From assembly GCA_002269645.1 (NCBI GenBank), contig NIVC01000384.1:434001-498000 (forward strand): a stretch of DNA of 64,000 nt. Reading direction: 5' to 3'. Under the pieces are notes generated by a model that did not search any database, was not told where the DNA came from, and worked only from the letters and a program-made list of their open reading frames with translations. The stretch is from Macrostomum lignano (lineage: Eukaryota). Numbering within the stretch: position 1 is the first letter of the stretch; every line of letters starts with the position of its first letter. Of the stretch, positions 5,602 to 57,800 are shown one piece after another. A program made the position numbers and the translations under genes.

Positions 5602-8600
5602 ATGGAGCTGGGACCTCGGCCTCGACCGCAGACGAAGAGCCTCTGGAAGGTGTCAATCAGTGGCACAGCGCCGCCAGGTATTTTTTAGTCCGAAAAACGG
5701 ATTACAATTAAACAAATTAAGTTTCTGATCCCACTGAGGCACTCCCTCCCCCAAACTCGGCAGTGACCTTGAAGAGGGGCGGCCTGGTACCAGCGATAGG
5801 ACGCGCGGCGCAGGCTCAGCAGCCGCAGCAGGACGTGATGATTCTGATGTCGAGCGGTCAGGAGCTCGAGTTCCGCCTGGCGCCCGAGCTGTCGCAGTCG
5901 CTAAAGCCCGGCCAGCTGCCTGACGAGGACGGAGCCGTCAGCAGCACCGGCCCGCGAGCGAAGCGACGCGCCCCAGCTCAGCGGTCGCAGAAGCCGCCAC
6001 AACAGGTCACCGTTGGAGTTGTGCAACTCGGCGATGTCTATGAGTTGCCGCCGGCCGCAGCCCCTGTTTCCACATCAGTGCAGAGCTTCTCAAAGACGCT
6101 GAGCTCGATGTCACCTGGCCAGGCCGTGGAGGAGTTCTCTTTGGGTCGAATATACCCAGGAGCTCTCGGGGCGCCCAGAGCCGGGCGCATGCAGCTCGTG
6201 GGTCAGCTGCAGCCCATCGCTGAGCCGGACGAGGAACCGAAGCAGCAGGCAAAGTTTCCCGGTCTGCCAGAGTCCAGGCATCCCCGTAGGCAGCCGAAGT
6301 TTATGCAGCAGTTGCAGCAGCAACAACAACAGCAACAGCAGCAACTAAAACAGAGTTGTCAATTATCGCAGCCGAAGCAACAGCAGTTTAGCTTCGGTCA
6401 ACTACCTGAAGCCAAGCAGGTTTCGAGGCTTCCTCAGCATCTTCAGCAGCTGCAGCAGCATCAGGAGACTCTTCAAGGCCAGTCGGAATTGAATCTGAGA
6501 CGCGGAGCGTTCCCTGTCTTGCCACCGACAAAACAGAAGAAATTGACTGGGCCAAAACCAGAAGGTGAGTCGCAACATCAGAAGAGTGTTCAACAAGGAA
6601 CAGAGTTGCGGAATTCTTTGTTAGAGCCGCTGCTGCAGCAGCAGCCTCAGTCAGAGCAGCAGCCACTCCAGCAGCAACTGCTCCAACAACTGCTCAACCA
6701 GCAGCAGCCTCAGTCAGAGCAACAGCAGCAAATGATCCAACAACTGCTCAACCAGCAGCAGCCTCAGTCAGAGCAACAGCAGCAAATGCTCCAACAACTG
6801 CTCAACCAGCAGCAGCCTCAGTCAGAGCAACAGCAGCAAATGCTCCAACAACTGCTCAACCAGCAGCAACAACTGCCTCAGTCAGAGCAGCAGCCACTCC
6901 AGCAGCAACTGCTCCAACAACTGCTCAACCAGCAGCAGCCTCAGTCAGAGCAGCAGCAGCAACTGCTCCAACAACTGCTCAACCAGCAGCAGCCTCAGTC
7001 AGAGCAGCAGCAGCAACTGCTCCAACAACTGCTCAACCAGCAGCAGCCTCAGTCAGAGCAACAGCAGCAACTGCTCCAACAACTGCTCAATCAGCAGCAG
7101 CCTCAGTCAGAGCAGCAGCCACTCCAGCAGCAAATGCTCCAACAACTGCTCAACCAGCAGCAACAACTGCCTCAGTCAGAGCAGCAGCCACTCCAGCAGC
7201 AACTGCTCCAACAACTGCTCAACCAGCAGCAGCCTCAGTCAGAGCAGCAGCAGCAACTGCTCCAACAACTGCTCAACCAGCAGCAGCCTCAGTCAGAGCA
7301 GCAGCAGCAACTGCTCCAACAACTGCTCAACCAGCAGCAGCCTCAGTCAGAGCAACAGCAGCAACTGCTCCAACAACTGCTCAATAAGCAGCAGCCTCAG
7401 TCAGAGCAGCAACAGCAGGATGTACTCGCTCAGTTGCAGCAGCAGCAGCAGGACCGCCAACTAGCGGAACGCGAGCAGTCAGAGCAACTTTCGTTTCAGA
7501 ATCAATCTCAGCTAGATGAGCAGGAGCAGCAGCATAAGTCTCAGTCAGAGCAGGAGCAGCATGCTGGTGAAGCGACAGATTCAACTATTGACGATGCTGA
7601 CAAGACACCGACATCGAAGACGCCAGTGGAGACAGACTCAGACAAAGAATCGGACAAAGACTCAGAAGAAAGCGAAGCTGCGATGCCGCTTGACGATGGC
7701 GAGGATCTGGGAGACGAGGAGGAAGAGCTCGAGGCGGTCGACGAGATCGACGTTGAAGAGGACGAGGAGGACGACGACCTGCCGGAGCTCGAGCTGCTGA
7801 CCGGACCGCTGAGCCTGGGCCGCCACCCAACCGTTGACGCGGTGTTCAGAGGCTCTCTGGACGATCTGCCAGCGATGCCAAGTAAAATTGTGCGAATTTT
7901 CACCAGCTCAACGTTTACGGGTGAGTTTTGGTTGAGAATTGGGGAACGTCATCCCATCAAAATATCTTGGCTCCGTAGACCTCGTGATCCTACGCTGTTT
8001 GATGTTTAATGCAGACACCGGAGTGGAGCGCAACTCTCTGATGGAAAGGGTCTATCCGAAAATCAAGGAATACTGCCGGGAGAAGCACGGGCTGGAATTT
8101 CAGGTAGGACTGAAATATTTATCGATTTCTGGTAGGTCAACTGTCTATGGCAGTGAACGAGGCATAGAAAGCACAGACAGAATGCCCACATATAGAACGC
8201 ACCTAGACAGTAAGCACATAGAAAGAATAACAGGGACAGAATACACATGGACAAAATACACATGGTGGACAGAATACACATGGACAGAATACTACGTAAT
8301 GTGCAGATTGTTGTTGATTTTGGAGGTGAGGTGGGTGTCAGAGCCAATGCAAATTCAACGCCTATCTAAATACATTAGACCGATTCTAATTGGTCCAGAG
8401 TCATTATGTGAGACATTTATACTCTCATGTAAAATCTATACATGTAATCAGTGTACACTGTGTCGTACAGCAGCGACGACCAGTACAATATAGTACGCAT
8501 AATTAGCGCTTCACCGTAGCAGTTGTACGCAGAAACGCGCGCGCCCCCAGCCCCGCACAATGCAGCATTGGTGTACGCAGAATTAACTGTCCATATTAAC

Positions 8601-11600
8601 TGTCCATATACCAAAAATTGGCAGAATTAGAGCGCCCACCCACCCCATAACTGTCCATATTATTACTTGTCCATATTTACTGTCCATCCCAAAATTGGTG
8701 TACGCGCAGAATTGTAGCGCCCGCCCACCCCATAACTGTCCATATTATTACTTGTCCATATTTACTGTCCATATATACACCCAAAATTGGTGTACGCACA
8801 GAATTGTCTGTGACCCCCACAAAATTGGCGGCCCCACGCGGAGGCATGATGAGTCAGTCAGCCAGTAAATCGCCGCTGTCCACCCCTCTGCCCTGCGCTG
8901 GCCGCTATAGCTACCTGCAGCAGTGTTACGCAACAACCCGGTCGAGCCAAAATGCTAACTTTATAGCCAGACACGTCATCAAGGTCTGAAAACACAAACT
9001 TCTATGCATGAAATATTCTCGTTTAACAAGATGCCAAACCAATTTTGTTCAGACAGCAAACTATAAATAAGAAAATTTGGATTCTCGGCCGTTTATCTAA
9101 ATTCACCAAGTTCAATTAACATCCCAATCGTGTGGAAAACGCAGTGTTTGACAAGCAATTTTTGGTTGCCAAAGCACAAGAGGATCAGACCGCCAAAGCA
9201 TGAACTGCCAACAACTTGGAGCAAGGAGCAAGGCCTCCAACGCCAGCACCGAAAATAGGTACAAAAGGCTCATTTTTTTCTGGAATCCTCGATAACGACA
9301 ACACCGTAAAAAGCTCGTTAACATGTAATTAAAACAAAAACTTATTGAGACTCTCGGGTATATAAGCACCAACCTGGAGCACCAAGCACCCGTACCTGCA
9401 AATTTTTGTCGGATTCTCGGCAGTTTTTCAAGCTCGAATAACATCCCCACCACTAGTGCGAACAACGCAGCAAGTGCTTGACAAGAAATGAGCTGGATTT
9501 CCAGAGACTACCCCCTATTATCGAACGAGGAAAAAGACGAATATGAGGCCTTGAAAAAATATGCTGACTGGTTGTGCATTTGCCACAGCAAACCGATTTC
9601 CGAGCGATTAGTCACCTTCAATGCCAAGGTCGAGGAAATTGATCAAGGCCCCTACGACAGCCAAGACTACGCAGCAGCCAGGATAAATGAGCAACTACGG
9701 GACAAAATGAGATTCAAAGCTGATTTAGCACGAATGGAGAGACTACTGGCTCCGATACTAAGTGAAGAGCATCGCCAAAAAATACGTTTTCGGAACCATC
9801 AAGATCTGTATAATCCGTCGTGGGAGGAGCAACAAAAGATTTGGAATTTTTGGCTGCCAAAGCACAAGAGGAACAGGCCGCCAAAGCTTGAACTACCATC
9901 AACTTGGAGCAAGGATTTCAGCACACCCCCAACGCCAGCACCCGAAAATAGGAACAAAAGGTTCATTTTTTCCGGAATCCCGATAACGACAACTCTGTAA
10001 AAAGCTCGTTATCGTGTAATTAAAACAAAAACTTATTGAGACTCTCGGGTATATAAGCACCAGCCCGGAGCATCTGCAAGCGCCCGTACCTGCAAATTTT
10101 TCTAAACAGACAAGAGACATGGAGACAGTGCAAGACTTCAACTGCGTCAAGCGAGAGCTGCTGGCACTCAAACCGCGAGGTCCGAGCTTCAACGGGGTTG
10201 AAACGTTTGACATTGAATATGACGAACAGGGACCTCTCTACTTGGCCAATGCGGTCCCTGTTTTGATCGTCAAGGGCGTGCGTACTGACAACGAAGGTCG
10301 CGAATTCATCATCATTGCACAAAAACACATTGAAAGCTGCATACCCTACACTTTCAACACTGTGGCGGAGCACCTTTCCAGCGAAAGTCTAGCTCTGCTG
10401 GGCTACAACCCAGCGTTTGGAGGTGACAGTGCAGCGTTTGGGCTGGCTCACGACTTTAAAATGTACGACCAAAACGGACTGCCTGTAGAGGATTACAAAA
10501 ACAAGAGCGGCTACTACAGGATTCTGTTTACTCTCGACACGGCCGTGATTCGAGACGCTGTTTTGACCGCAATGCCAAAAATTCAACAGCTACAGTTTGT
10601 CGAAGAAGCCAAACAGGCATTCGATCGTTGCTATTGGACGCCACCTCCAAAAATCAAGGTAGGCGCCAAGAAAGTAAGCAAGAAAGCAAAGAAACCACCA
10701 AAGCTTGTCAAGGAGAAGCAGCCAAAGGTGCCTAAAAATCAGGCCAGAAAGCGACAGCATCAATCGAAACTAGTAGCAGCCAACGAATCAAAGAAGCGGT
10801 CGAAAGCCCCAAGAAGGATACGAAAGTAAAAACTGCCGAAAAATCTACTTGCAGAACGTCGAGTGTGTGAACCGAGTGTTTTGCGCGAAATGGAGCCGCA
10901 TGCCTGACTTGGACTGGGCGAGCGCACGGACATTTCGCAGACCAAGAGCTCTTATCAATTTGCGAATAGGAAAATGTACAATCAACTTTTTTCAGCGTTC
11001 TTTGTCTGCAATTGTATTCGGTTGTCGCTCCATCAACCAAGTTTTGCGTCTTTTTCCTCAATGTAAACCAATTTCTGTTGTTGTTACCACTAGTACTTAC
11101 CGCGCTGAAGTAGACAGATGGCCAAACTTTTTCCAAATTGCATACCTCGGGTCCAGCTGGGTGAAGTGGGAGTGTGAAGTTTTCAATGGAATAGTAATAA
11201 AGTCTCCATTTCGCAATGCTAAATGTTTATTATGCGGAAAGAATGGCCGCCTTGTTTTCCTTGGAATACGAAACTTTAAAGAGCTCTGTCAAATGTACGA
11301 TCATGTGACTAGCGTTTTGCATGTCTAATCCATGTAGCTGTTGCGTAACTTTACTGCTTTACCACTGTACCGAATTTGTATGTACGTACAAGCTGCTATG
11401 AAATTGTCTATAAATATATTGTGCATAAATTGCAGTGCACTGCAACCAACATGACAAACGGAATCTCCAGACTATGTTCTTGTCGCGGCGAGCTCGCAGA
11501 GCTCGCCAAAGCCCGTCCCACTCTTCGGCGGGCCATTATTCGAGGTGCAGGCAAGGAACTGATTCATTGTCTCTGTGAATTGAGTCACAACGTGCTCCGG

Positions 11601-14600
11601 GGAAATATCGATCTTTCTCCGAAACAGTATCTGCGATTAAAGCGATACAGAAGATCGTTGCGTGAATTGGCAGACACAAAATTGTCTATAAATAGGAAGA
11701 AGAATATGCTTCTCTCGAATCCTCAAGTCGGTGGCTTTCTACCCATCCTTGCATCTGTTGCTGCACCGCTAATATCAAGCCTGTTTGGCGGACTACTTGG
11801 TCGCTAAAATGAATAAATACGTTGTTGTACCAGAAGAAGAATTTAATAGACTAAGTCAAGGCGCACCCCGAGAAATTGCATCCAAAACAGAATATGAAAA
11901 ACTCATTGAATACAACACTCAACTCCAAAATAAACTAAGTCAGATCAAGCAAAAGAAGAGTAATCGTTTTCCTGAACGACAACAACGTGTTTGGGACATG
12001 CTGACAGAAAGATACCCAAATTTGGAGTACAACAAGTCGTGGGAAATTGTATTTGATGGAAAAACCTGGCCAGGAAGCAATATTTTCGATCTATTGAAGG
12101 AGATTACATCGAATGAAAGGCGCGACCGCCCAAGCCCAAAATATAGTACCGCTTTTTGGGCCCTGGCCGAAGAGGCAGATATTGCAAAAGCTCTACTAGG
12201 ACGACGCCAACAAGAAGAAGTCAGTGTGAAAAAAGAAGTCGGCACGGATCCGGATCGAGACGATTTTTTAGTCGAGCAAGCAATTGGAACTAATGATTTC
12301 TACAACGACTTCCACAAAGACCAAGCCAGTGGCCTGAATGAAATTAAAAAATATGAAGATCGTGGCAGCGATGCCTACAGGCATGCTTCATACCAACTTC
12401 GCGAACCAAAGAGGCGGCAGAAACCAGCAGTAAAATACGAGACGTTAAAAAAACTATAAATAGAAATCATTTTCATGATATATAATCTGTTTTTGGATCA
12501 TGGGTGCCGCAGCTGTAACTTCAAAGCTTTGCTCAGACAAACCGTCTGTGGAGTTCAAGTGTAATTACTCATGCTGTGCATCGAATCTAGTTGCGAATGA
12601 GGGTGAAAACCGCTCTTCGGAGAGTGTACGAACAGGGGGACGCCGCTTTTACAAATGCTGCCCGTGTATATCAGGAGGCCAAACGGCTGGTCCCCTCCCT
12701 GACGAGACGCCAAACCGACGAATGGCTGAAGACCCAATCGAGCTACACCCGGCACAAGAGGGTTAAAAGAAAATTCCAAACAGGAAAAGTAATGTCAGGA
12801 GGCTTCATGGAAACTGTGCAAGCGGATTTGATGGACATGTCGCGATACGAACAATGGAATGATGGTCATCGATATATTCTAGTTGCAATTGACGTGCTTA
12901 GTAAATTGGCTTTTTGCAGCAATAAAATTGAAAAGCGACACTCCAAAGGCTTTTGAAAGCATGATCAAAGACTTCCCCATTAAGCCTTTATATCTACACG
13001 TTGATCGAGGTACCGAGTTTTATAACAATCGCATGCAGAACTTACTGAAAGCCCATAATATCAAAATGTACAGTACAAACTCTGTATACAAGGCAAATAT
13101 GGCTGAAAGGCTGATTAGGACTCTCCGAAAACGTTTAGCTCGCTACTTTGAGCATAAAAACACGTGGCGTTGGATCGACTATTTGCCAATATTGGTTAAA
13201 AGTTACAACAACACAGTACACTCTACTATTGATATGAAACCTTCGAGTGTCGGTCTGCACAATCAAAAAGAATTGTGGGAAAAGCTCTACAAGGATCCTG
13301 AATATGATGAACCAGTTTACCAAAAAGGGGACTTTGTCAGAATTTCAAAATCTCGTCGAGCCTTTGACAAGGAAGCATACGATATGTACAGCGAAGAAGT
13401 TTACGTTTTGTCTCAAGTATGCCCGGGACCGCCTCATTTTTATCGCATTTCCGACCTCATCATTTCGTTAGTTGGCGCGGCTATCCCGAGTCGTTCAATG
13501 CATATGTACCAGTTGAGGAAGTTATAAATATAAGACAAGGATGAGCACACATACACTCGAAACGTGTAGTATATTACAATGCATCTATTCCTATCTAGCA
13601 ATGCGTGCGTTGAGCACTATCCTGAGAATAATTCGGCACATTATAGCATTAATTTGCCCGACACCCTCCACTTTCCGAATCATGAAGTCTGCATCGAACG
13701 GATCTACTTTTGTAAAGAATTCAAAACCGTCCCCGATAATCGAATGGTTGATGTCCTGACCAACGCTCCCGAGGATGAAGTGATTGACATTGAGGTGAGA
13801 GAAAAACCCGCCTCCACGTATAAACAGTTTGCGTCGGTTTCTCTCCTCGCGGGGCTATCAACAGCCAACGAAGTGGTTGATGCAATCATCGCCGATCTAA
13901 AATATGAGCAAGACGATAATGCGATGATTTGCATTGAGCGTTCACAGGAAGGCCAAATTTCAATTGTGAACAAATCATGGTATGGTGCGAACATTAGGCT
14001 GTCCAGTAATGTGCGTAGCATGTTTAAAAAGGTTGATGACGCTGGAAATAAATCAAATATCGAAGTAACGACTTTTTTATTAAACCCAAGAAATTCGTTA
14101 GTATTCGCTATAGAATTGGAGTCCTCCTCCTCCATAGAGAGTCCCATGACTCTAACGTTTGAAAAGAGTGTCTGGCCTTCTAGAACGTCACTGCGGATTG
14201 CTAAAGGATTCTACCGCACGCCTGATGAGCTCTTAAATTATGTTAATGGAGCGCTTTGGGGCGTCGTTTCAAAGCTCCCAATAAGTCCAGCGACGAGAGT
14301 GGATGCATTCCGCTACAACCCTTTTCTGAACCGGTGTGAGTACAAACCATTGAAAACATTTTATTCGACATTGGAGAGCTTGCTGCCATTCTCGGCTTTC
14401 GCGAAGATGTTTTCAATGAAACTCCAAAGACCGCTAAACGACCAATCGATTTAACAAATGGTGTACAAACTATGTACATCTATTCAAATATTGTCGACTC
14501 TGCCATTGTTGGAGACGTCAAAGTCCCCCTGCTTGGGGCAATTCCTTTGAATGAAAAGGTATACGGCGAACGAGAGTACTACGAGTTTGTCAATCCATCC

Positions 14601-17600
14601 TACTTACCGTTGGTGAAACACCCATTCAAAACCATTGAGGTGCAAATCTGTGACGATATGGGCAAGTTAATGGATCGGATTCTTCGAGGCAAAACTGTTT
14701 TATCGATCAACATTCGTGAAATTAAGCTATAAATAAAGAAGTTTTCACGAATAAAAGGTAGCAACTGATCGACAATATGCCTTCAATCTTGATCGGAGGA
14801 GCTTTACCGGTATTTTCCGGTGCACAGCGCGGCAACGGCCTGTTTGGCAGCATTGCCCGATTTGCCCTGCCAATTTTAAAGAGTTTTGGCAAAAATATTC
14901 TTCGCCACGGAACACGAGCCCTAGCTACAACAGTTAGCGACACACTCGATCAAGGCGGGAACTTGAAAGAAGCGGCATTGCGTAACTCTGTCCAGGCAGC
15001 TAAAGATGCTTTCAAGGACACAGTCGCACAACGAGGTAGCGGCAGACAAAGACGAAGAAAGATGACTAACAAAAAAACGAGAAAAAGACTGCAGCATTCT
15101 GATATTTTCGACTCTATAAATAAAAAAACCCGTGCCAAAACTGATCTGTCTATTAGAGCACCACACTAAGCCGCTGTTGAAAGAAAAATGACTGAGTGCC
15201 TGTGTACAAAGTCGGAATTCGAGCTATTTGCTCCTCGCGCACACCAAATTGCTGCAATTAGCGCTACCACTGAAGAAGTTCACCCTGTTGCCAGTGTTGA
15301 AAATGCCAGCGTGGTCGAATTTAGGATTGTTGGTGGTGAGACGTTTATCGATCTTAACGACATTGACCTCGAGATTAAGGCCCGCGTTAAGCAGTCTAAT
15401 GGTACAAATCTTGCTGCTGATTCGAATGTTGCGCCGGTCAATTACGTCCTTGAAAGCATGTTTAAAAACGTCACGTTGACAATCAACGGGACACAAGTAG
15501 AGTCGAGCAATAACAACCACGCTTACAAGGCCTATATTCGCACGTGTTTGAATTACGGACACGATTCAAAAACCAATCAACTGAGAATGATGGGCTACGC
15601 AAAGGACGCTGGAGGTCAAATGGCTGTGGTTGGAAATCCTGGCTTTGTAGCCCGCAAGGCGATGGCGGCAAACTCACGCACTTTTCACCTTTATGGACCT
15701 CTTAGTTTAGACTTTTTTGTTACCAACGACCGAATGCTACTACCATACACTGATATGGTGACTACGCTGACCATGCACAATTCCGGCTTCGTTCTGGAAA
15801 ACCACGCGGACGGGGTTGATGCGCGGCTAGTACTCGAGAGTGCCAAACTACATGTGCGCCGCGTCAAGGCAAACCCCCAATTGGCATTGGAGATTGAAGA
15901 ACAACTAGGCAAACAGAATGCAATCTATCCGATTGAGCGACTTGTTGTGCACAACACTTCAGTGGCTGGCGGTGTTCGGGACATGTCAATCAACAATATA
16001 TTTCCTGAACAAAAGCCTAAACTAGTGGTTGTTGGCATGGTGAACAGCGGCGCGTACAACGGTGTGGCTACACATAACCCGTTTAATTTTGAGCCATTTA
16101 GTGCCGACAGTGTCGCTCTGTATAAGGACGGAGTCAGTCTGTGTGGACAACCGTTTACTCCTCGATTCGGTGTTCATAACTATGCTCGCGAGTATGCCAT
16201 GCTACTAAAAAGCCTAGGAAAGATGAATCGGGACCTGGATATTGACGTATCATATTCCGACTATGGAGCTGGCTACTGCTTCTTCGCCTGGAATCTCATG
16301 CCCGACATGGAGCTGGGCGGGCATAGCATGCCTCGCGAGCGAGGGAATCTGACGCTACAAATAAAGTTTTCTGCTGCCTTGGCCGCAGGAATCAACGTGT
16401 TGGTGTTTGGCTACTTTGACAATACTGTGCAAATCACTCGCGGTCGTCAGGTTATTCTAGACTACGTGTAGAAACAAACATCTCTTTTTTATTCTCGAAT
16501 AACGACCATATTCATGCCGATATGAATAGTCTAGATATATTAGAACGTCTAATACTACCTGTCCCTGTTCGAGTAACACCAGTTGACAGGATTCCGCAGC
16601 CTGTTTATCCTGCTGCATACGTGATTAACTTTGACACTGGCAATCTACCAGGCACTCACTGGGCTTTAATTTGTCTTCATGCCGATGAGAGCGTGACATT
16701 TTTTGACCCCTTGTGTATCGATCCTGTGCCAGATTTATTAAAGTTGTGGATCGCAAAGTATGTCCCTGTGGAGGTGGCCATGAACCGGCATCCTGTACAG
16801 CATCAGCTAAGTGTGACCTGCGGGGCTCATGTAATATTTGTGGCTGAAAAACACTTTCTGGAGGGTCTGTCAATTGAAAAAATATTGCGCGACTGTTATA
16901 GCACAAATCTTTACGAGAACGACTTGATGGTGCAGAATCACTGTCTACAAATAAAGCAGCATCATCCATAAATATGATTGGGCTGCCTATCAAAATGTAT
17001 CAAACAATAGACCCCGACTCTTTAAAATTTGCCCCCAAAACGTCGGCAATTTTTGCTGGGGTGGCTCAAAGCGGTAAGACCACACTTGTGAAAAACCTAT
17101 TGAGACAAGAATTTTTTCAAGATCCGAAGCCGATTCGCGTAGACTGGTTTGGCCACTATCCGGATCCTGAACTGTTTGAATTGCCGTACCCTGTAAATTT
17201 TCGTTCGTGTACATTTGATCCTGAACAATATGTCCCTGAACCAAATATTCTGCTTGTCGTCGACGACCAAATGCATGCCATGGAAAAGAGTGGCGCTTTT
17301 ACAACTTTTTTCACGCGCAAAGTCTCCCACGTGGGGTTCCGACTTTGGTATCTTGTGCAAAACCTGTTTGCAAAGGGTAAGGAGCACCGAACTCAGTCGC
17401 TCAATTCGAACTACCTTGTTTTATTCCGCAATGTACGGGATGCCAGCACAGTGTCTCATATTGCAAGGCAGCTGGTCCCCACTAATCCAAAAAGTTTTGT
17501 CAAAACGTATGAGGATGCTACTCGCGACCCCTACTCATACTTGATTGTAAACTGTTTGCAAAATGCTCCTGCTCGCTATTATTCAAACGTTTTGGGTCGT

Positions 17601-20600
17601 CACCCAATTGTGTATGCTAAATAAATATACGTATCAAAGTTCGGCCGGCTTTTTGTGTAAATATATATATACACCTTTTGAAAACTTATTTGGGAGAGGG
17701 GTTGGGGGATGACGTAATTGTCTCGGAGTGTCGACGAGGGCTGAATTCTAGAGAGTGAAGTATGGAAGGAGTGGAAATAACAGGCTGCAGCAGCGATTTA
17801 CAGCGGCTGACTCATCATGCCTCCGCGCGGGGCCGCCAATTAATTGTGAGGGGTCACAGACAATTCTGTGCGTACACCAATTTTGGGTGTATATATGGAC
17901 AGTAAATATGGACAAGTAATAATATGGACAGTTATGGGGTGGGCGGGCGCTACAATTCTGCGCGTACACCAATTTTGGGATGGACAGTAAATATGGACAA
18001 GTAATAATATGGACAGTTATGGGGTGGGTGGGCGCTCTAATTCTGCCAATTTTTGGTATATGGACAGTTAATATGGACAGTTAATTCTGCGTACACCAAT
18101 GCTGCATTGTGCGGGGCTGGGGGCGCGCGCGTTTCTGCGTACAACTGCTACGGTGAAGCGCTAATTATGCGTACTATATTGTACTGGTCGTCGCTGCTGT
18201 ACGACACAGTGTACACTGATTACATGTATAATTAGATTTACATGAGAGTATAAATGTCTCACATAATGACTCTGGACCAATTAGAATCGGTCTAATGTAT
18301 TTAGATAGGCGTTGAATTTGCATTGGCTCTGACACCCACCTCACCTCCAAAATCAACAACAATCTGCACATTACGTAGTCAGAATACACATGGACAGAAT
18401 ACACATGGACAGAATACACATGGACAGAATACACATGGACAGAATACACATGGACAGAATACACATGGACAGAATACACATGGACAGAATACACATGGAC
18501 AGAATACACATGGACAGAATACACATGGACAGAATACACATGGACAGAATCCACATGGACAGAATACAAATGGACAGAATAAACATGGACAGAATACACA
18601 TGGACAGAATACACATTGACAGAATACACATGGACAGAATACACATGGACAGAATACACATGGACAGAATACACATGGACAGAATACACATGGACAGAAT
18701 ACACATGGACAGAATACACATGGACAGAATACACATGGACAGAATACACATAAACAGAATACACACGCCAGGTCGTCGACATGCGCTGGGGAGTAAGAGA
18801 TGAGGCCACTGACGATCACATGACAACGGAGCTCTGCCTACGCGAGATCAAGACCTGTCAGAGAGTCAGCGTTGGCCCAAATTTTGTCGTCCTGCTCGGC
18901 CAGAAATACGGCTACCGGCCCGTCCCAACCCTGATCGACGCCCAGGAGTTCGACATGATCGTGGCCGCTGTGCGGCAGGGCGGCGCAGAGAAGGACGCAG
19001 CCTGCCTGGAGCGCTGGTACAAGCGCGACGCGAATATTGTGCCACCTGTGCAGGTCCTCCAGCCGATATCGTCCATATTGATTCACTTCAATAATAAGGT
19101 GAGAATTGGGGATTGGGGAAAGGGGAAGGGACAGAGCATCTAAATTATGGTTAATGCGTTGTTCATTCAACTTTGATAAATTGTGTAATGTGCAAGAAAA
19201 TCCTCTTTAATTAAATTCCATCACATACTAAAATAACTAGATGGGCCACTCAGGCGCAAAACAGCTTTCTACTTTCAGTTCAGTAGCAAAGAGGAATGCA
19301 TAAGCTATTTTATAAAAATAAAGGTGGCTGAGATGCTTTTGACTAACTTAGAAGCCAAGCTTGCCAACGTAAACAGCTTGCTAATTGGTTCAGCCATAAT
19401 GTACATTAGCCACTGAAATGTACATGGCAGATTTAGGCTGGAACAACCGAGTAAGACAAAAAAAATTGGGTGGTGGGGCAGGGTAAATATGTGTGGAGTT
19501 TGAGGGTTTAAGCTTGGGAGGGGGTAAGGGCCAATAAATGAGCCTTGGCTTTAAAAATACATTAAAATACTTCAGTTTAACTTGCTACTGAACTGAAAGT
19601 AGCTTACACGCAAATGCGCTGAGTGGCCTATCTAGTTATTCTAGTATCTGTGAGTTCAATTAAGCAATCTACTTTGATTTCTTTTGCAACACAAAAATTA
19701 CGAATTTCAGGACAAGGTGGGACGAAGCCTCTCTGTAATCTGATTTTAGATTAATTCATTTTAGAGGCTATTAATTCGGAGTTTTTTTAAGCTTTCAACG
19801 TTATTCTATCAGGTTTTACTTCTAATTGTTGTTTTGGGTGTCCCATATTATAAATAAATGACATAATTTATAACTGCCTGATAAATGTTTACAAGCTAAA
19901 TTGTGCTGCCAAATATCTGGATGTTAAAAATGAAACTTTAATATTAAACCCCGCTAAACTCTGCAAACTTGACTGCACAACTTCCCCAAAAACCGCAGGG
20001 CATGCAAAAAATGATGGAAGCTCACCAGAACGAATGGTGGTCCACAATGTCCTCGATGCAAGTGATCTTTCGACAGGCCGCCGATTCGCTGTTTGCCCAG
20101 GGAAAACTTGACGCAGACCAGAGGCACAACTATTTCATGTCGGGTGCGTTTCCAAGCTGATTTTGAATTTTTGACAGCATCATTAGATCGGTAAAAATGC
20201 CTGTGAAGTTTCCTAAACGCGTCCGAGAATCTGAGATTTCGAGGTTCTTTCCCGAGCAGTGTCCGAGGATCATTCCCAAACAGTGTCCGAGGATCATTCC
20301 AAAACAGTGTCCGAGGATCATTCCAAAACAGTGTCCGAGGATCATTCCCAAACAGTGTCCGAGGATCATTCCAAAACAGTGTCCGAGGATCATTCCAAAA
20401 CAGTGTCCGAGGATCATTCCAAAACAGTGTCCGAGGATCATTCCAAAACAGTGTCCGAGGATCATTCCAAAACAGTGTCCGAGGATCATTCCAAAACAGT
20501 GTCCGAGGATCATTCCCAAACAGTATCCGAGGATCATTCCAAAACAGTGTCCGAGGATCATTCCAAAACAGTGTCCGAGGATCATTCCCAAACAGTGTCC

Positions 20601-38808: not shown

Positions 38809-40078
38809 TCAGTTCATGGCCTGGGTCGGGCTGGTCTGCCCGCGCAGCATGCCGCTTAGAGCCTTGGCCGCGCCCATGCTCTTTGGACTGGCGGCCGACT
38901 TGAAGGAGACCTGCAGGGTCCGGTTGCCCACAGTGTAGCCGTTCAGCGACTGGATAGCCAGCAAGGCCTCCTCGTAGTTGCTCATCGTGACGAAGCCGAA
39001 GCCGCGGCACTTGCTGGTGCCGGGGTCGCGGATCACCTTCACCGTCTGGACGGCGCCAAACGGGCCAAACAGCTCCCAGAGGATCCGGTCCTCGGTCTCC
39101 GGCGCCAGGTTGTAGACGAAGATGCTCCAGCTGCCGCTGGAAGTCATGCCGCCGCCCTGGGCAACCATCGACTGGGCCAGGAGGGCCGAGTTCGGTAGGC
39201 TGCTGGCCGCGGCCATGAGGTCGCCGATGCCGCTGATGCCATTGTTGATCGGGCTCTGGTACTTGCTGTAGTTGCGGGTCAGAGCGGCCAGGTGCTGGAT
39301 AGGGCTGCCCAGCTTGGCGCCAGATGGCGAGTGCATGCTGCACTGCTTCAGGAAGCTGTTCACCAGATTGCTGCTCTCCTGCCTGGCCGCGCTGGGACTG
39401 TTGGCAAACTTCACCGTGATTGGCTCGCAGCCTTCCTCCGGTGTGTAGCCGTTCAACTGCTTGATGGCGTCCTCGGCCTCGCTGCGCTGGTCAAACCGGA
39501 TGAAAGCGACGCCGCGCGACAAGCCGGTCTTGTTGTCGTACAGAATGCGCAGCGTGATGATCTTGCCGCACTGGGAGAACAGGCGCGACAGCTCCTCCTG
39601 GGTCATTCGTTTGGGAAGACCGCAGATGTACAGATTGGCACCCTTGATGGCCTCGGAGCTGGGCCGCGCCAGAGACACTTTAATAGTCTTGTTCTGCAGT
39701 CTAAGGCCATTCAGCGTCTTAATGGCCTTGTCCGCCTCTTTCGGCTGCATGTACTTGACAAACGCGTAGCCCAGACTCTCGCCAGTGGTCCTGTCGCGTA
39801 CTAACTTGCAGCTTTCGACCTCGCCAATGCTAGAGAATAAGGCGCGTACGTCCTCTTGAGCCATCGAGGGTGGCAAGTAGTTAACGATCAGGTTGGTGCG
39901 GTTCTCTAGAATTTCGGTGTTTGAAATCAATTTTAGTATTTAGATTTATTAGGCTAGACTATGCTAAAATTTCAAACCAAGCTAAATTATGACAGCAAAA
40001 TCAAATGACCTTACCGCTATCAGTTGAGCCGCATGAAGAATTGTTGGTGTCCTTGCCCAGAATGTCTGTCGAAGCCAT
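38809..40078 (-). CDS. elav: ELAV/Hu family RNA-binding protein with 3 RRMs
   Basis: Exons 40078-40015 ([10 protein letters not shown]..., phase 1) and 39905-38809. [63 protein letters not shown] and LQVSFK are diagnostic. Confidence 0.96.
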
Positions 40079-54852: not shown

Positions 54853-57800
54853 CAGACAGACACACAGACAGACACAGACAGACAGACAGACAGACAGACA
54901 TTACAATTACAGCTGGATATACAATCGATTGCAGTACAAATCCGTTTTTTCAAAAAGGAATTATTACTTCGGCTGTCCGGAAAGTCGTGAGAATGTGTCA
55001 ATTAAGCAAGAAAGCAGCAAGCTGTTGACGTGGCACACAGAAATTTTCAATAATAGACTCATATATGTCTATGGTGAAAATTCTTGTTATTCTAGTAGCA
55101 AAATTGGGGGCAGGGGCGAGCTCAGTATAAAGTGCTCAATAGCAAATGCAACGCGGTGATCAAGTTTGAAAATTTTGACAGCGAGTTCTTCAAAATGGAA
55201 GACTTCCAGGGTTATGCCTATGCTAGATACCGTCTTGGAATCTCCGCTCTCAGCTGCCATGACGAGCTGCTCGAAGTTTATGGAGATGCTGCACCAGGTC
55301 GGTCAACGGTTTACAGATGGTATTCGAAGTTCCGTGACGAAGCATTTCCCCCGGTCTCAGCTCCTCGGACTGGCCGGCCACGGTCAACAAGGACAGCGGA
55401 ACTGATCGAAACCTGCCGAGCTCTTATTGAAGAGGATCCAAAAGTTAGTGTCCGAGACCTCGCTGACTTTATGGAAGTTTGAAAAACAACAGTGCACGAA
55501 ATTTTGATTGAGGATTTGCACCTTCGAAACGTTTCTGCCGTCTGGGTTCCGCATGCTCTATCCGAGGAGAACAAGACTGCTCGCATCAATTGTGCCAAGC
55601 AATTCGCAGGCTTTTTTACAACGAGGGCATGGAAAACTTTTGCGACAAGTACGTGGTGGAGGATGAGACGTGGGTGTACCTGAACAACACTGGCACAAAG
55701 CAAAACAACAGGTGCTGGCTTGGCCAAGGAGATCATCGGCCCCAGGTTGTCAGGCACTCAGTCGGCAATGCAAAGACAATGCTTCTGGTTGCTTTCACTC
55801 CAAACAAGCGCTTCTCCATCGAATCCACAGCCCCAAAGCAAACTGTTGATGCAAATGGCATAGTTGAGTTCATTCGGCACACGGGAGACCTATGGCGTAC
55901 TCTGAGGTCAAAGCCAATTCATCTGTTGGATGTTCTTTGGCAGTGGGACAATGCGCGACCTCACGTGGCTCGTTCTGTGCAGCAGTACATGGAGTCCCGT
56001 GGAGTTCAGCTGGTGTTTCAGAGTCCTTACAGCCCAGACTTCAATTTGTGCGACCGTTTTTTGTTCAGTAGGATGAAGACTGATCTCTCCAGGCGAGTGT
56101 TCAGCGACCACAATGAAGTTCGAGAAGCTGCGTTGCAATGGGCAAGAGGCCTTGACGAAGATTGCTTGAAAAGAGAGGTTCAGCGACTCGTTGACCATTG
56201 CCAAGCTGTAATCAACGCAAGGGGAGATTACATTACCAACTAGTACAGTTATCGTGTTTTTTGATAGTTCTGACTGATTTTTTAAATACATTCTCACGAC
56301 TTTCCGGACAGCCGGGTAATAATAAGGCGAAAAATCAGTCACCTAAATGATTCTCAGACGTGTTTAATACTTTTACTACTTCATCCCGAGTGCTAGGGCT
56401 AACCCCCCATCAGATGAACACGATCCACGTGAAGGGGAGTAAGATAAAGAGGCCATAGTATTCAAAACTTCCTGCCTCGCGCATTCGAGTGCAAATCAAA
56501 CAGTTTTCATATGAGAAAGCACAAATGCATTGGGCAGGGCAGGATTGAGGAAGGGCCGCAGGAACTGGGACGCGAATGCAGATAGCCTTGTCAGTTAATT
56601 AGGTAGATAAAATCGCCATCTTTAAATCGGAAATCGCTATCAGTCAGGTAATTTCCTCCGCACACTATTCAAAAACCTTGTAGCTAATTTAAATATGGAA
56701 AATTTCGAAAGGAAATTAAGAAAAGTCAACTGAGAAAACAAAGAATGAAAACCGACAGGCACTGATCAAATCAATGAAATAGCCAGGCATTTCAGACCTT
56801 CGGACTTCTAAAAATAAAGCCGAGTCGGGGCTTCGAAGGGCCATTCGCGGGGCGTTTAGCAGCCTTTCTTGGTGACTTTAATCGCCTTTCTCAGTGAGGT
56901 GAGTTTAGGTGAGTTTAGTGCGGCCTTTCTTGGTGAGTTTAGTGCGGCCTTTCTTGGTGAGTTTAGTGTGGCCTTTCTTGGTGAGTTTAGTGCGGCCTTT
57001 CTTGGTGAGTTTAGTGCGGCCTTTCTTGGTGAGTTTAGTGTGGCCTTTCTCAATGACTTTAGTGTGGCCTTTCTTGGTGAGTTTAGTGTGGCCTTTCTTG
57101 GTGAGTTTAGTGTGGCCTTTCTCAATGAGTTTAGTGTGGCCTTTCTTGGTGAGTTTAGTGTGGCCTTTCTTGGTGAGTTTAGTGTGGCCTTTCTCAATGA
57201 GTTTAGTGCGGCCTTTCTTGGTGAGTTTAGTGTGGCCTTTCTTGGTGAGTTTAGTGCGGCCTTTCTTGGTGAGTTTAGTGTGGCCTTTCTTGGTTAGTTT
57301 AGTGCGGCCTTTCTTGGTGAGTTTAGTGTGGCCTTTCTTGGTGAGTTTAGTGTGGCCTTTCTTGGTGAGTTTAGTGTGGCCTTTCTTGGTGAGTTTAGTG
57401 CGGCCTTTCTTGGTGAGTTTAGTGTGGCCTTTCTTGGTGAGTTTAGTGCGGCCTTTCTTGGTGAGTTTAGTGTGGCCTTTCTTGGTGAGTTTAGTGTGGC
57501 CTTTCTTGGTGAGTTTAACGTGGCCTTTCTTGGTGAGTTTAGCGTGGCCTTTCTTGGTGAGTTTAGCGTGGCCTTTCTTGGCGAGTTTAGCGTGGCCTTT
57601 CTTGGTGAGTTTAGCGTGGCCTTTCTTCCAAAAACAGAGAGAAATCGTTTTTTAACTTTCACAAAAACAGGCTGCTCACCTCGTGAATCAGCGGTCCAAG
57701 CACCAGAGCGCTGTCTACGCATCTGCCAGTGATGACAAACTGAGCCCCGGCGTTCAAGGCCTGCGCTATGGGCTGGGCTCTGGGAAGCGACAACGGAATG

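Follow-up and report, generated by a model that had tools for sequence, protein, structure and literature searches.

The window, the whole 64-kb stretch of DNA analysed, carries one copy of a Polinton-type element of 10,089 bp (8291..18379). Features are given on the forward strand unless stated otherwise. The element is bounded by TIRs of 588 bp on the left (8291..8878) and 592 bp on the right (17788..18379, reverse strand), and a TSD copy with the sequence CAGAAT adjoins each of them (8285..8290 and 18380..18385). The initial annotation had described both the TIRs and the TSD as intact, and this was confirmed. When the two TIRs were aligned, 579 of 594 columns were identical and 8 contained gaps, identity being uninterrupted over blocks of 143 and 381 bp; as the outer TIRs are near-perfect, the insertion is likely to be recent. 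The left TIR starts with 5'-ACTACG and contains internal repeats of 85 bp and of 13-16 bp. The termini of this one copy within the window read 5'-ACTACG...CGTAGT-3', an imperfect triplet repeat. TSD lengths from 3 to 9 were tested and a match was obtained at 6 only. The left copy lies inside a 15-bp host minisatellite, around which CAGAAT would match by chance in one register in 15, and the length of 6 bp agrees with the Maverick norm despite this context. The element is housed in a GT..AG intron (8104..18771) of an NWD2-like NACHT-WD40 host gene, and the intron would measure 573 bp without it. An Rfam search gave 0 matches, and an exact look-up of 10 element proteins in a protein collection found none of the 10.

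Accessory genes, integrase and virion module

Three accessory genes follow the left arm. ORF170 (9488..10000) has no significant family match. ORF236 (10119..10829) is conserved, with 6 homologues at 57-61% identity, one of which (P0018) sits on an 8,848-bp contig, and encodes a beta-rich protein with a basic tail. By eye, it had been presumed to resemble an SSB. No test lent support to this label: Atlas, PDB profile, Pfam, PHROGs and phage tblastn searches were all without a match, comparison with T7 gp2.5 alone gave an hhalign probability of 0.1, and the structure model has a pLDDT of 36, at which a Foldseek result is meaningless.

The third gene (10834..11328; first ATG at 10900, giving 142 aa, with the true start uncertain) encodes a TBP-like factor, as initially annotated, and both sequence profile and fold support this assignment. 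A homologue with 63% identity (P0024) passes the Pfam TBP cut-off, the TBP-like profile matches PDB TBPs (E 8e-6), and the C-terminal half of the predicted structure aligns with TBPs (Z 9.8, rmsd 2.5, 78 aligned). The model supports a TBP fold for the C-terminal repeat, the N-terminal repeat being modelled at low confidence. The protein of the window by itself gave no Pfam or PDB match, and an Atlas search with the ORF returned only scores of 0.8 or less. Seven TATAAATA boxes, a motif that amounts to a near-canonical TATA box, were found on the same strand (0.2 expected), and six of the seven precede genes of the virion module. With a TBP-like gene and a strand-specific TATAAATA box ahead of the virion genes, the element suggests a simple model, open to testing, of how Polintons may control their late genes.

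The next gene (11451..11807, 118 aa) encodes a protein with a C-terminal GG/F, which we take to be a protease-site-like motif. By tblastn it has counterparts in related Polinton loci (E 5e-14), placed after the ATPase gene there, and it is called the PM-position gene from gene order (PMC8097293). The PZ-position gene (11809..12459, 216 aa) is named from its position only, and tblastn against its counterparts in two related loci (L001 and L004) gave no match. A small Cys-rich ORF (12500..12766) lies 45 nt behind a TATAAATA box and overlaps the start of the integrase; it has no Pfam match and, judging from its first residues (MGAAA), its product is possibly myristoylated.

The RVE (retroviral-like) integrase gene (12597..13544; Pfam rve, E 6.5e-5) is broken twice, by a frame change between 12883 and 12956 and, near 13420, by the absence of about 30 residues of a distant homologue, with the chromodomain-like tail encoded in a different frame. 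The minor capsid protein, or penton (13579..14732), is split over two frames with a change near 14340-14380, and the frame that encodes its C-terminal part aligns with L003 from residue 14 onwards (E 4e-16). The PW-position core protein (14777..15169, 130 aa, with a basic tail) matches L003 by tblastn (E 7e-9) and is likewise named by gene order (PMC8097293). The remaining virion genes encode the major capsid protein (MCP; 15188..16471, 427 aa), an adenain-like cysteine protease (16522..16971, 149 aa) and, after the protease, the packaging ATPase (16974..17624, 216 aa); these three frames are open and their motifs are kept. Inspection of the protease showed the motif residues His, Asp, Gln and Cys to be present, and the protein is 31% identical to the L005 protease, itself a weak match to Peptidase_C5. 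Neither the protease nor an MCP profile retrieved anything useful from the sequences of the PDB. MCP, penton, protease and ATPase each match genes of pPolB-bearing Polinton loci. Beyond the ATPase gene, the stretch 17650-17720 contains a TA-rich run and a CRE-like site, which might represent the orphan inward-facing promoter of a lost convergent gene.

The earlier view that the virion module is kept was upheld, MCP, protease and ATPase being open and the penton frameshifted; the initial annotation does not mention the breaks in integrase and penton. The proposal that the element packages itself found no support for the present copy: given the penton frameshift and the two integrase breaks, a frameshift and a deletion, it should not be taken as self-packaging or self-integrating. 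At most, it could supply MCP, protease, ATPase and accessory proteins.

The missing polymerase and the left arm

The longest ATG ORF of the element has 427 aa, as first reported, and the longest stop-to-stop frame 433 aa. The reported absence of pPolB was upheld by Pfam, tblastn and motif searches, which small remnants could still escape. None of the 262 six-frame segments (at least 25 aa) of the element matched a DNA polymerase family of Pfam at E<=0.1, the best tblastn hit that three pPolB fragments of related Polinton loci obtained in the element had an E of 0.60, and pPolB motifs that were matched in L004 and L003 had no match in it. Pfam overlooked a 277-aa polymerase fragment of L003. 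When pieces of 60-360 nt were planted as a control, tblastn recovered them in 1/18, 0/17, 1/16, 1/14 and 1/11 trials; such sensitivity is poor, and a search with distant pPolBs is too weak for excluding remnants. There is no space for a whole pPolB gene, since the largest ORF-free gap measures only 609 bp (8879-9487); about 1,240 of the 8,909 interior bases lie beyond the called ORFs, and in L004 the polymerase half alone needs at least 1,575 bp. No helicase or primase that might replace pPolB was found among the Pfam matches of the six-frame segments, and ORF170 and ORF236 are too short, and without a family match, for an SF1 or SF3 helicase or a primase-polymerase.

The MCP groups with animal Polinton MCPs. 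Its clade mates are 78-80% identical (support 100/100) and the next relatives are at most 38% identical; the ATPases of close relatives are 79-87% identical. Among these close relatives, private substitutions are highest in the element (31 vs 13-21 in MCP and 9 vs 1-6 in ATPase). The order MCP-PRO-ATPase seems to be shared by the close relatives, the 3,422 and 3,773 contigs recurring for both MCP and ATPase homologues; no listed MCP or ATPase homologue sits on an 8,848-bp contig. A polymerase is present in both related families with judgeable flanks. It lies upstream of the ATPase-PM-PZ-INT block in five loci (L004-L007 and L009) and is convergent, after the protease, in L003; these pPolB-bearing comparators are distant, with an MCP identity of about 31%.

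The left arm, which is the arm holding pPolB in those five loci, contains a duplicated stretch (9062..9407) that is a candidate deletion scar. An orphan TATAAATA box comes first, then a leader-like stretch, then a repeat of sequence from the end of ORF170. The leader-like stretch (9079-9159) resembles 9411-9489 (66%, E 0.001) and is joined directly to 9157-9407, which is 88% like 9845-10101, a segment spanning the ORF170 3' end and the promoter that follows it. We read this arrangement as a putative tandem paralogue of ORF170 with an internal deletion, the candidate scar lying near 9157. Losing about 355 bp of the paralogue explains the scar fully, and pPolB need not have been there.

Origin of the element

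The best explanation, which we favour tentatively, sees in the element a non-autonomous Maverick/Polinton that inserted into the germ line not long ago. By internal deletion of pPolB, it may well have descended from a pPolB-bearing Maverick family, whose ancestral length we infer to have been about 13-15 kb; quite possibly pPolB was lost before integration and the element was mobilised in trans. In this scheme, a complete sister that shares the ACTACG ends would provide the terminal protein to prime an excised linear copy at its TIR ends and the pPolB to replicate it, and it would wholly or partly supply integration and capsids too. The pPolB of Polintons includes a terminal-protein domain (PMC11071308) and the element has no gene for a terminal protein, helicase or primase, so helper-dependent replication is its most likely mode; to that extent the initial annotation stands, its self-packaging part being unsupported.

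The left-arm scar near 9157 and the integrase deletion, which would be a second deletion, may serve as circumstantial evidence for a deletion derivative. Neither a sister copy nor a helper was found in the window. The 8,848-bp contig of the ORF236 homologue is a weak hint of a longer left arm in relatives; against this, its length is near that of the 8,909-bp interior and would fit a pPolB-less relative with an uncalled capsid gene. Scaled from one mutational event in the 2 x 530 bp of TIR, 8 events are expected in the interior (95% range 0.2-47). The breaks in integrase and penton may therefore be younger than the insertion, or errors of the assembly, and do not prove mobilisation in trans. 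PolB-less Polintons are already known: in the butterfly Pieris mannii, TIR-flanked polB-less polintons with highly similar polB-bearing sisters were judged still mobile, according to the available text of a preprint (10.1101/2025.02.07.637071). A deletion derivative would enlarge, by an example from a Polinton clade not yet characterised, the small record of polB-less Polintons that can persist and perhaps move in trans, which bears on a replication mode so far inferred rather than shown.

The element could instead be a one-off fossil, in which a complete Maverick integrated, pPolB was then deleted in the chromosome and the copy never moved in its present form. We consider this unlikely, yet the strongest of the rival readings. 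Decay is the rule in vertebrates, where 96% of Maverick loci are reported as degraded (PMC8097293), and the element itself has at least two deletions and two frameshifts, a number of lesions compatible with that predicted after insertion. The scar near 9157 lends circumstantial support here too, and the excess of private substitutions in MCP and ATPase is as expected of a fossil, though an outgroup position would fit too. However, a multi-kb deletion that erases a whole gene without a detectable piece while leaving the TIRs near-identical is less expected than inherited loss, weak as remnant detection is. An assembly artefact, whether through omission of a segment with pPolB or through base-calling errors that mimic frameshifts, is very improbable. 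The window is repeat-rich and the left arm carries a 260-bp duplication, but there is no N in the window, and a neighbouring host frame runs through 1,319 codons without a break; collapse of the duplicate copies is unlikely as they are only 88% alike and too different.

Two further readings make the absence of pPolB a property of the lineage. A stable satellite lineage, a Polinton clade of about 10 kb that dropped pPolB and the terminal protein long ago, maintained its virion, integrase and TBP-like genes by selection and borrows the replicase of another Polinton or virus, with the present copy as a slightly decayed member, is improbable. The distinct close clade described above, the unusual gene order seemingly common to it, and the compact layout with all genes on one strand speak for it, as does the resemblance of the 8,848-bp contig to the interior in length; that length is absent among contigs of MCP or ATPase homologues, the left arm is rearranged, and the published polB-less polintons have close polB-bearing sisters (10.1101/2025.02.07.637071). 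Replication by host polymerases aided by the element's own SSB-like and TBP-like proteins is very unlikely and found no support. The TBP-like gene is real and ORF236 is conserved, but a TBP acts in transcription and the SSB label could not be confirmed; linear ends require a terminal protein, in Polintons a part of pPolB (PMC11071308), and the pPolB-less PLVs and Tlr1 have helicases (PMC5499653), of which none was found in the element.

More speculatively, and with slightly less probability than the satellite lineage as such, long-lived "satellite polintoviruses" of about 10 kb might exist in animals, borrowing both replicase and terminal protein from a helper and expressing their virion genes from a dedicated TATAAATA late promoter that a TBP mimic of their own would read, in convergence with the late transcription of herpesviruses. 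If the clade proved pPolB-less throughout, it would represent a satellite virus of Polintons in animals, one that surveys demanding pPolB plus integrase miss by design; one nematode study filtered in this way.

Comparison with known systems

The element resembles the Mavericks/Polintons of animals (PMC8097293) in its long TIRs (about 590 bp, against 46-1,447 bp in those elements), 6-bp TSD, RVE integrase, mCP-PW-MCP-PRO block, ATPase, and PM and PZ positions. It differs in size and content, intact vertebrate elements measuring 12,723-24,620 bp whereas the present one has 10,089 bp and no pPolB; in the ATPase, which precedes PM there and follows the protease here; in its end motif, ACTACG instead of the (AGT)2, (AG)3 or (AC)3A of vertebrates; and in having a TBP-like gene. 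Relative to an autonomous Maverick/Polinton, long TIRs, 6-bp TSD, virion module and a (broken) RVE integrase are present and pPolB is missing. Adintoviruses/MELD viruses (PMC8502044) share hexon, penton, adenain, packaging ATPase and an rve integrase with a chromodomain-like tail; they are defined by an OTU-bearing PolB, absent here. A figure legend in that paper labels a TBP for MELD viruses of non-animal datasets, and its available text does not connect TBP with a promoter motif.

Polinton-like viruses (PLVs) and Tlr1 (PMC5499653) also have a virion module without pPolB. In contrast to the present element, with its protease, its RVE integrase and no detected helicase, they lack the protease, carry SF1 or SF3 helicases and, for PLVs, mostly have no RVE integrase; membership was rejected on the presence of the protease and the lack of a helicase. 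TBP mimics of beta- and gammaherpesviruses such as KSHV ORF24 (PMC12529657, PMC7498053) are similar by analogy only, in pairing a viral TBP-like protein with a TA-rich motif before virion genes; here the box is a near-canonical TATA box, the protein is some 140-165 aa long, and further late-transcription factors were not identified.

With Polinton ends and genes and no replicase, the element corresponds to a non-autonomous polB-less Polinton. The polB-less polintons of Pieris mannii and the Gypsy-replaced group (10.1101/2025.02.07.637071) share with it TIRs, canonical polinton proteins, the lack of polB and an apparently recent origin, and their mode of mobilisation is left open in the available text. 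In those elements, LINE or LTR cargo coincides with polB loss, whereas the present element is cargo-free and compact.

Boundaries, insertion site and genes of the element

The initial annotation placed a compact Polinton/Maverick with complete termini at 8291-18379 (10,089 bp); the feature is real and its description correct. Pairwise alignment defined TIRs at 8291-8878 and 17788-18379 with 579 identities over 594 aligned columns, the mismatches clustering at one site near position 145 and in the innermost 65 bp, so that identity is uninterrupted over 143 and 381 bp. A 6-bp TSD, CAGAAT, is present on both flanks, and only this length fits among lengths 3 to 9. The element ends in ACTACG..CGTAGT (8291-8296 and 18374-18379), which is none of the three end-motif types given for vertebrate Mavericks in the available portion of PMC8097293. 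The insertion target is a 15-bp minisatellite in a GT-AG intron of an NWD2-like NACHT-WD40 gene of the host (5721-27556, + strand). The intron runs from 8104 to 18771 and would measure 573 bp if the element were removed; the gene also has a long exon of glutamine-rich repeats (5721-7920) and an open frame of 1,319 codons. No second copy is present in the 64-kb window. Elsewhere, the window carries a 243-aa DDE_3 (Tc1/mariner-like) transposase frame (55512-56243, + strand) and, at 38809-39939 on the - strand, an open frame encoding three RRM domains that looks ELAV-like on inspection.

All called genes are on the + strand: ORF170 (9488-10000), ORF236 (10119-10829), a TBP-like ORF (10834-11328), genes at the PM and PZ positions, a small Cys-rich ORF, integrase, penton (minor capsid protein), PW, MCP (major capsid protein), protease and ATPase; PM, PZ and PW were named from the gene order in the part of PMC8097293 at hand. 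Scanning an MCP alignment against bacterial genome contigs gave 52 pattern matches and nine comparator loci, all on contigs labelled bacterial MAGs (L001-L002, L004-L007 and L009 on a Rubritalea MAG). These Polinton loci, whole or partial, are of animal type and presumably represent host contamination. By tblastn, they matched PM, integrase, the C-terminal part of the penton, PW, MCP, protease and ATPase; PZ and the N-terminal part of the penton had no match in the nine loci. The ATPase (16974-17624) lies after the protease, not ahead of PM. The small ORF (12500-12766, + strand) has its own TATA box, overlaps the integrase start and begins with MGAAA; it possibly encodes a myristoylated virion protein. 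Just inside the right TIR, a TA-rich run with a TGACGTAA site (17625-17787) is possibly an inward-facing promoter without a gene behind it.

The claim that the virion module was kept holds for MCP, protease and ATPase, whose frames are open with their motifs by inspection, and is doubtful for the penton, whose conserved C-terminal part lies in another frame than its N-terminal part (change near 14340-14380, for which splicing or an assembly error could also account). In the integrase, a frame change falls between 12883 and 12956, about 30 residues of the L004 integrase have no counterpart near 13420, and the chromodomain-like tail lies in another frame.

Absence of pPolB and other replicases

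The reported lack of pPolB, the protein-primed DNA polymerase, was upheld. In a Pfam scan of every six-frame segment of at least 25 aa, none of the 262 segments matched polymerase, helicase or primase families, save weak P-loop matches on the ATPase. With three pPolB fragments as queries, the best tblastn E value in the element was 0.60, and pPolB motif patterns had no match within it. Short remnants may escape such searches, as planted pPolB pieces of 60-360 nt were recovered in only 4 of 76 trials and Pfam overlooked a polymerase fragment in L003. The main point is settled by space: free sequence amounts to about 1,240 of the 8,909 bases in the interior, with no gap longer than 609 bp, so that room for a whole pPolB gene is lacking. 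As Polintons are defined by pPolB plus integrase in the literature excerpts available, this is no autonomous Polinton; its architecture is that of a Polinton and fits a non-autonomous derivative.

Among the comparators, pPolB lies upstream in five of nine loci (L004-L007 and L009, near-identical copies of one family; PF03175 at E 4e-17 in L004), and in L003 the protease is followed by a convergent polymerase fragment that has a DTDS motif and matches the L004 protein at E 2e-4. None was found in L001, L002 or L008 within the DNA at hand for each. Both families that can be judged thus have pPolB, at an MCP identity to the element of only about 31%. Behind its pPolB, L004 also carries a gene weakly resembling PC4, and its sequence at about 12.7-18.4 kb is retroelement-like. 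In P0016, an Ephemera danica NCBI protein, an rve integrase and an MCP are joined, which probably reflects a faulty gene model.

The TBP-like gene and its candidate promoter motif

The most distinctive side finding is a TBP-like gene together with a promoter motif. As a single query the ORF had no match. The proposed TBP-like factor is supported by other results: of its two homologues (63% and 41% identity), the closer clears the Pfam TBP cut-off (24.6 vs 22.9 bits), and a three-sequence profile against PDB gave TBPs or TBP fusions as the first 35 of 38 matches (best E 8e-6). The predicted structure (mean pLDDT 52) best matches TBP chains, over the C-terminal repeat only (Z 9.8, rmsd 2.5, 78 aligned; best unrelated chain Z 6.4), and viral TBPs top its BFVD list (E about 1e-3). 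The SSB label given to ORF236 found no support in any test.

The motif TATAAATA occurs seven times, on the + strand only (9062, 11409, 11687, 12455, 13523, 14728 and 15115), whereas 1,000 shuffles gave 0.22 occurrences on average and never more than 2, a significance that is overstated because the motif was picked after the repeats were seen. Six of the boxes precede virion-module genes: five lie 42-73 nt ahead of an ATG (PM, small ORF, penton, PW, MCP) and a sixth lies 122 nt before PZ. The seventh, at 9062, is an orphan. None occurs within 110 nt before protease or ATPase; TATATAAG instead precedes ORF170 (9359) and ORF236 (10050). L004 and L001 have TATAAATA once each and L003 has none. We hypothesize that the viral TBP-like protein acts at these boxes; host TBP could serve equally well as their reader. 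A TBP label for MELD viruses exists in a figure legend (PMC8502044; 10.1101/697771, available in part), and among the papers listed on the subject none links a Polinton TBP to a promoter.

Origin, replication and known counterparts

Three MCPs (78-80% identity) form one clade with that of the element (100/100 support), which sits on a long branch; the remaining MCP homologues have 38% identity or less. The ATPase has five homologues (79-87%) and ORF236 six (57-61%), mostly on short contigs where size is given. Contigs of 3,422 and 3,773 bp recur for MCP and ATPase homologues alike, which suggests that an ATPase after the protease is a trait of the clade.

According to the accessible text of PMC11071308, pPolB of Polintons contains the terminal protein as its N-terminal domain, so the element is without both primer and polymerase. 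The most economical route would be replication in trans by the pPolB of a sister acting on the TIR ends, and the ACTACG ends would indicate which helper to expect. We tentatively favour a trans-mobilised deletion derivative. Deletion of pPolB after insertion is possible and somewhat less probable. In the left arm, 9157-9407 and 9845-10101 share 88% identity, and there is a weak similarity (66%, E 0.001) between 9079-9159 and the leader of ORF170; by its sequence the arm reads as a tandem ORF170 paralogue with start and middle deleted, behind the orphan box. This scar lies in the arm corresponding to the pPolB location of L004-type elements, and a loss of about 355 bp accounts for it as well as loss of pPolB. 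With one mutational event in the outer TIRs (2 x 530 bp), about 8 would be expected in the interior (95% range 0.2-47), so the breaks are not datable as before or after insertion.

A stable satellite lineage without pPolB, which would be of high interest, is unlikely. An ORF236 homologue on an 8,848-bp contig cuts both ways, this size being close to the 8,909-bp interior yet missing among the contigs of MCP and ATPase homologues. Of the suggested helper-dependent satellite or defective element, helper-dependence stands as most likely, there being no primer, polymerase or helicase; this copy has a broken integrase and penton. Replication by host machinery is very improbable, and an assembly error, which could explain the penton, is just as remote. 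A defective, helper-dependent element of a kind already known, from an uncharacterised clade, is most likely. Small non-autonomous Polintons are reportedly present in Repbase from the work of Kapitonov and Jurka in 2006.

At 10,089 bp the element is shorter than intact vertebrate Mavericks (12.7-24.6 kb), 96% of vertebrate loci being degraded (PMC8097293, available portion). Unlike PLVs and Tlr1, which lack pPolB and carry helicases in its place (PMC5499653, in the part available), it yielded no helicase in the six-frame Pfam scan. Literature on related elements, as far as accessible, describes swaps of the replicase and meldviruses in which other replicases occur and PolB is missing; within that scope it gave no example of a cargo-free element of ~10 kb with a virion module and no replicase. 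In butterflies, the accessible text of 10.1101/2025.02.07.637071 describes TIR-flanked polintons without polB that are seemingly still mobile and have polB-bearing sisters.
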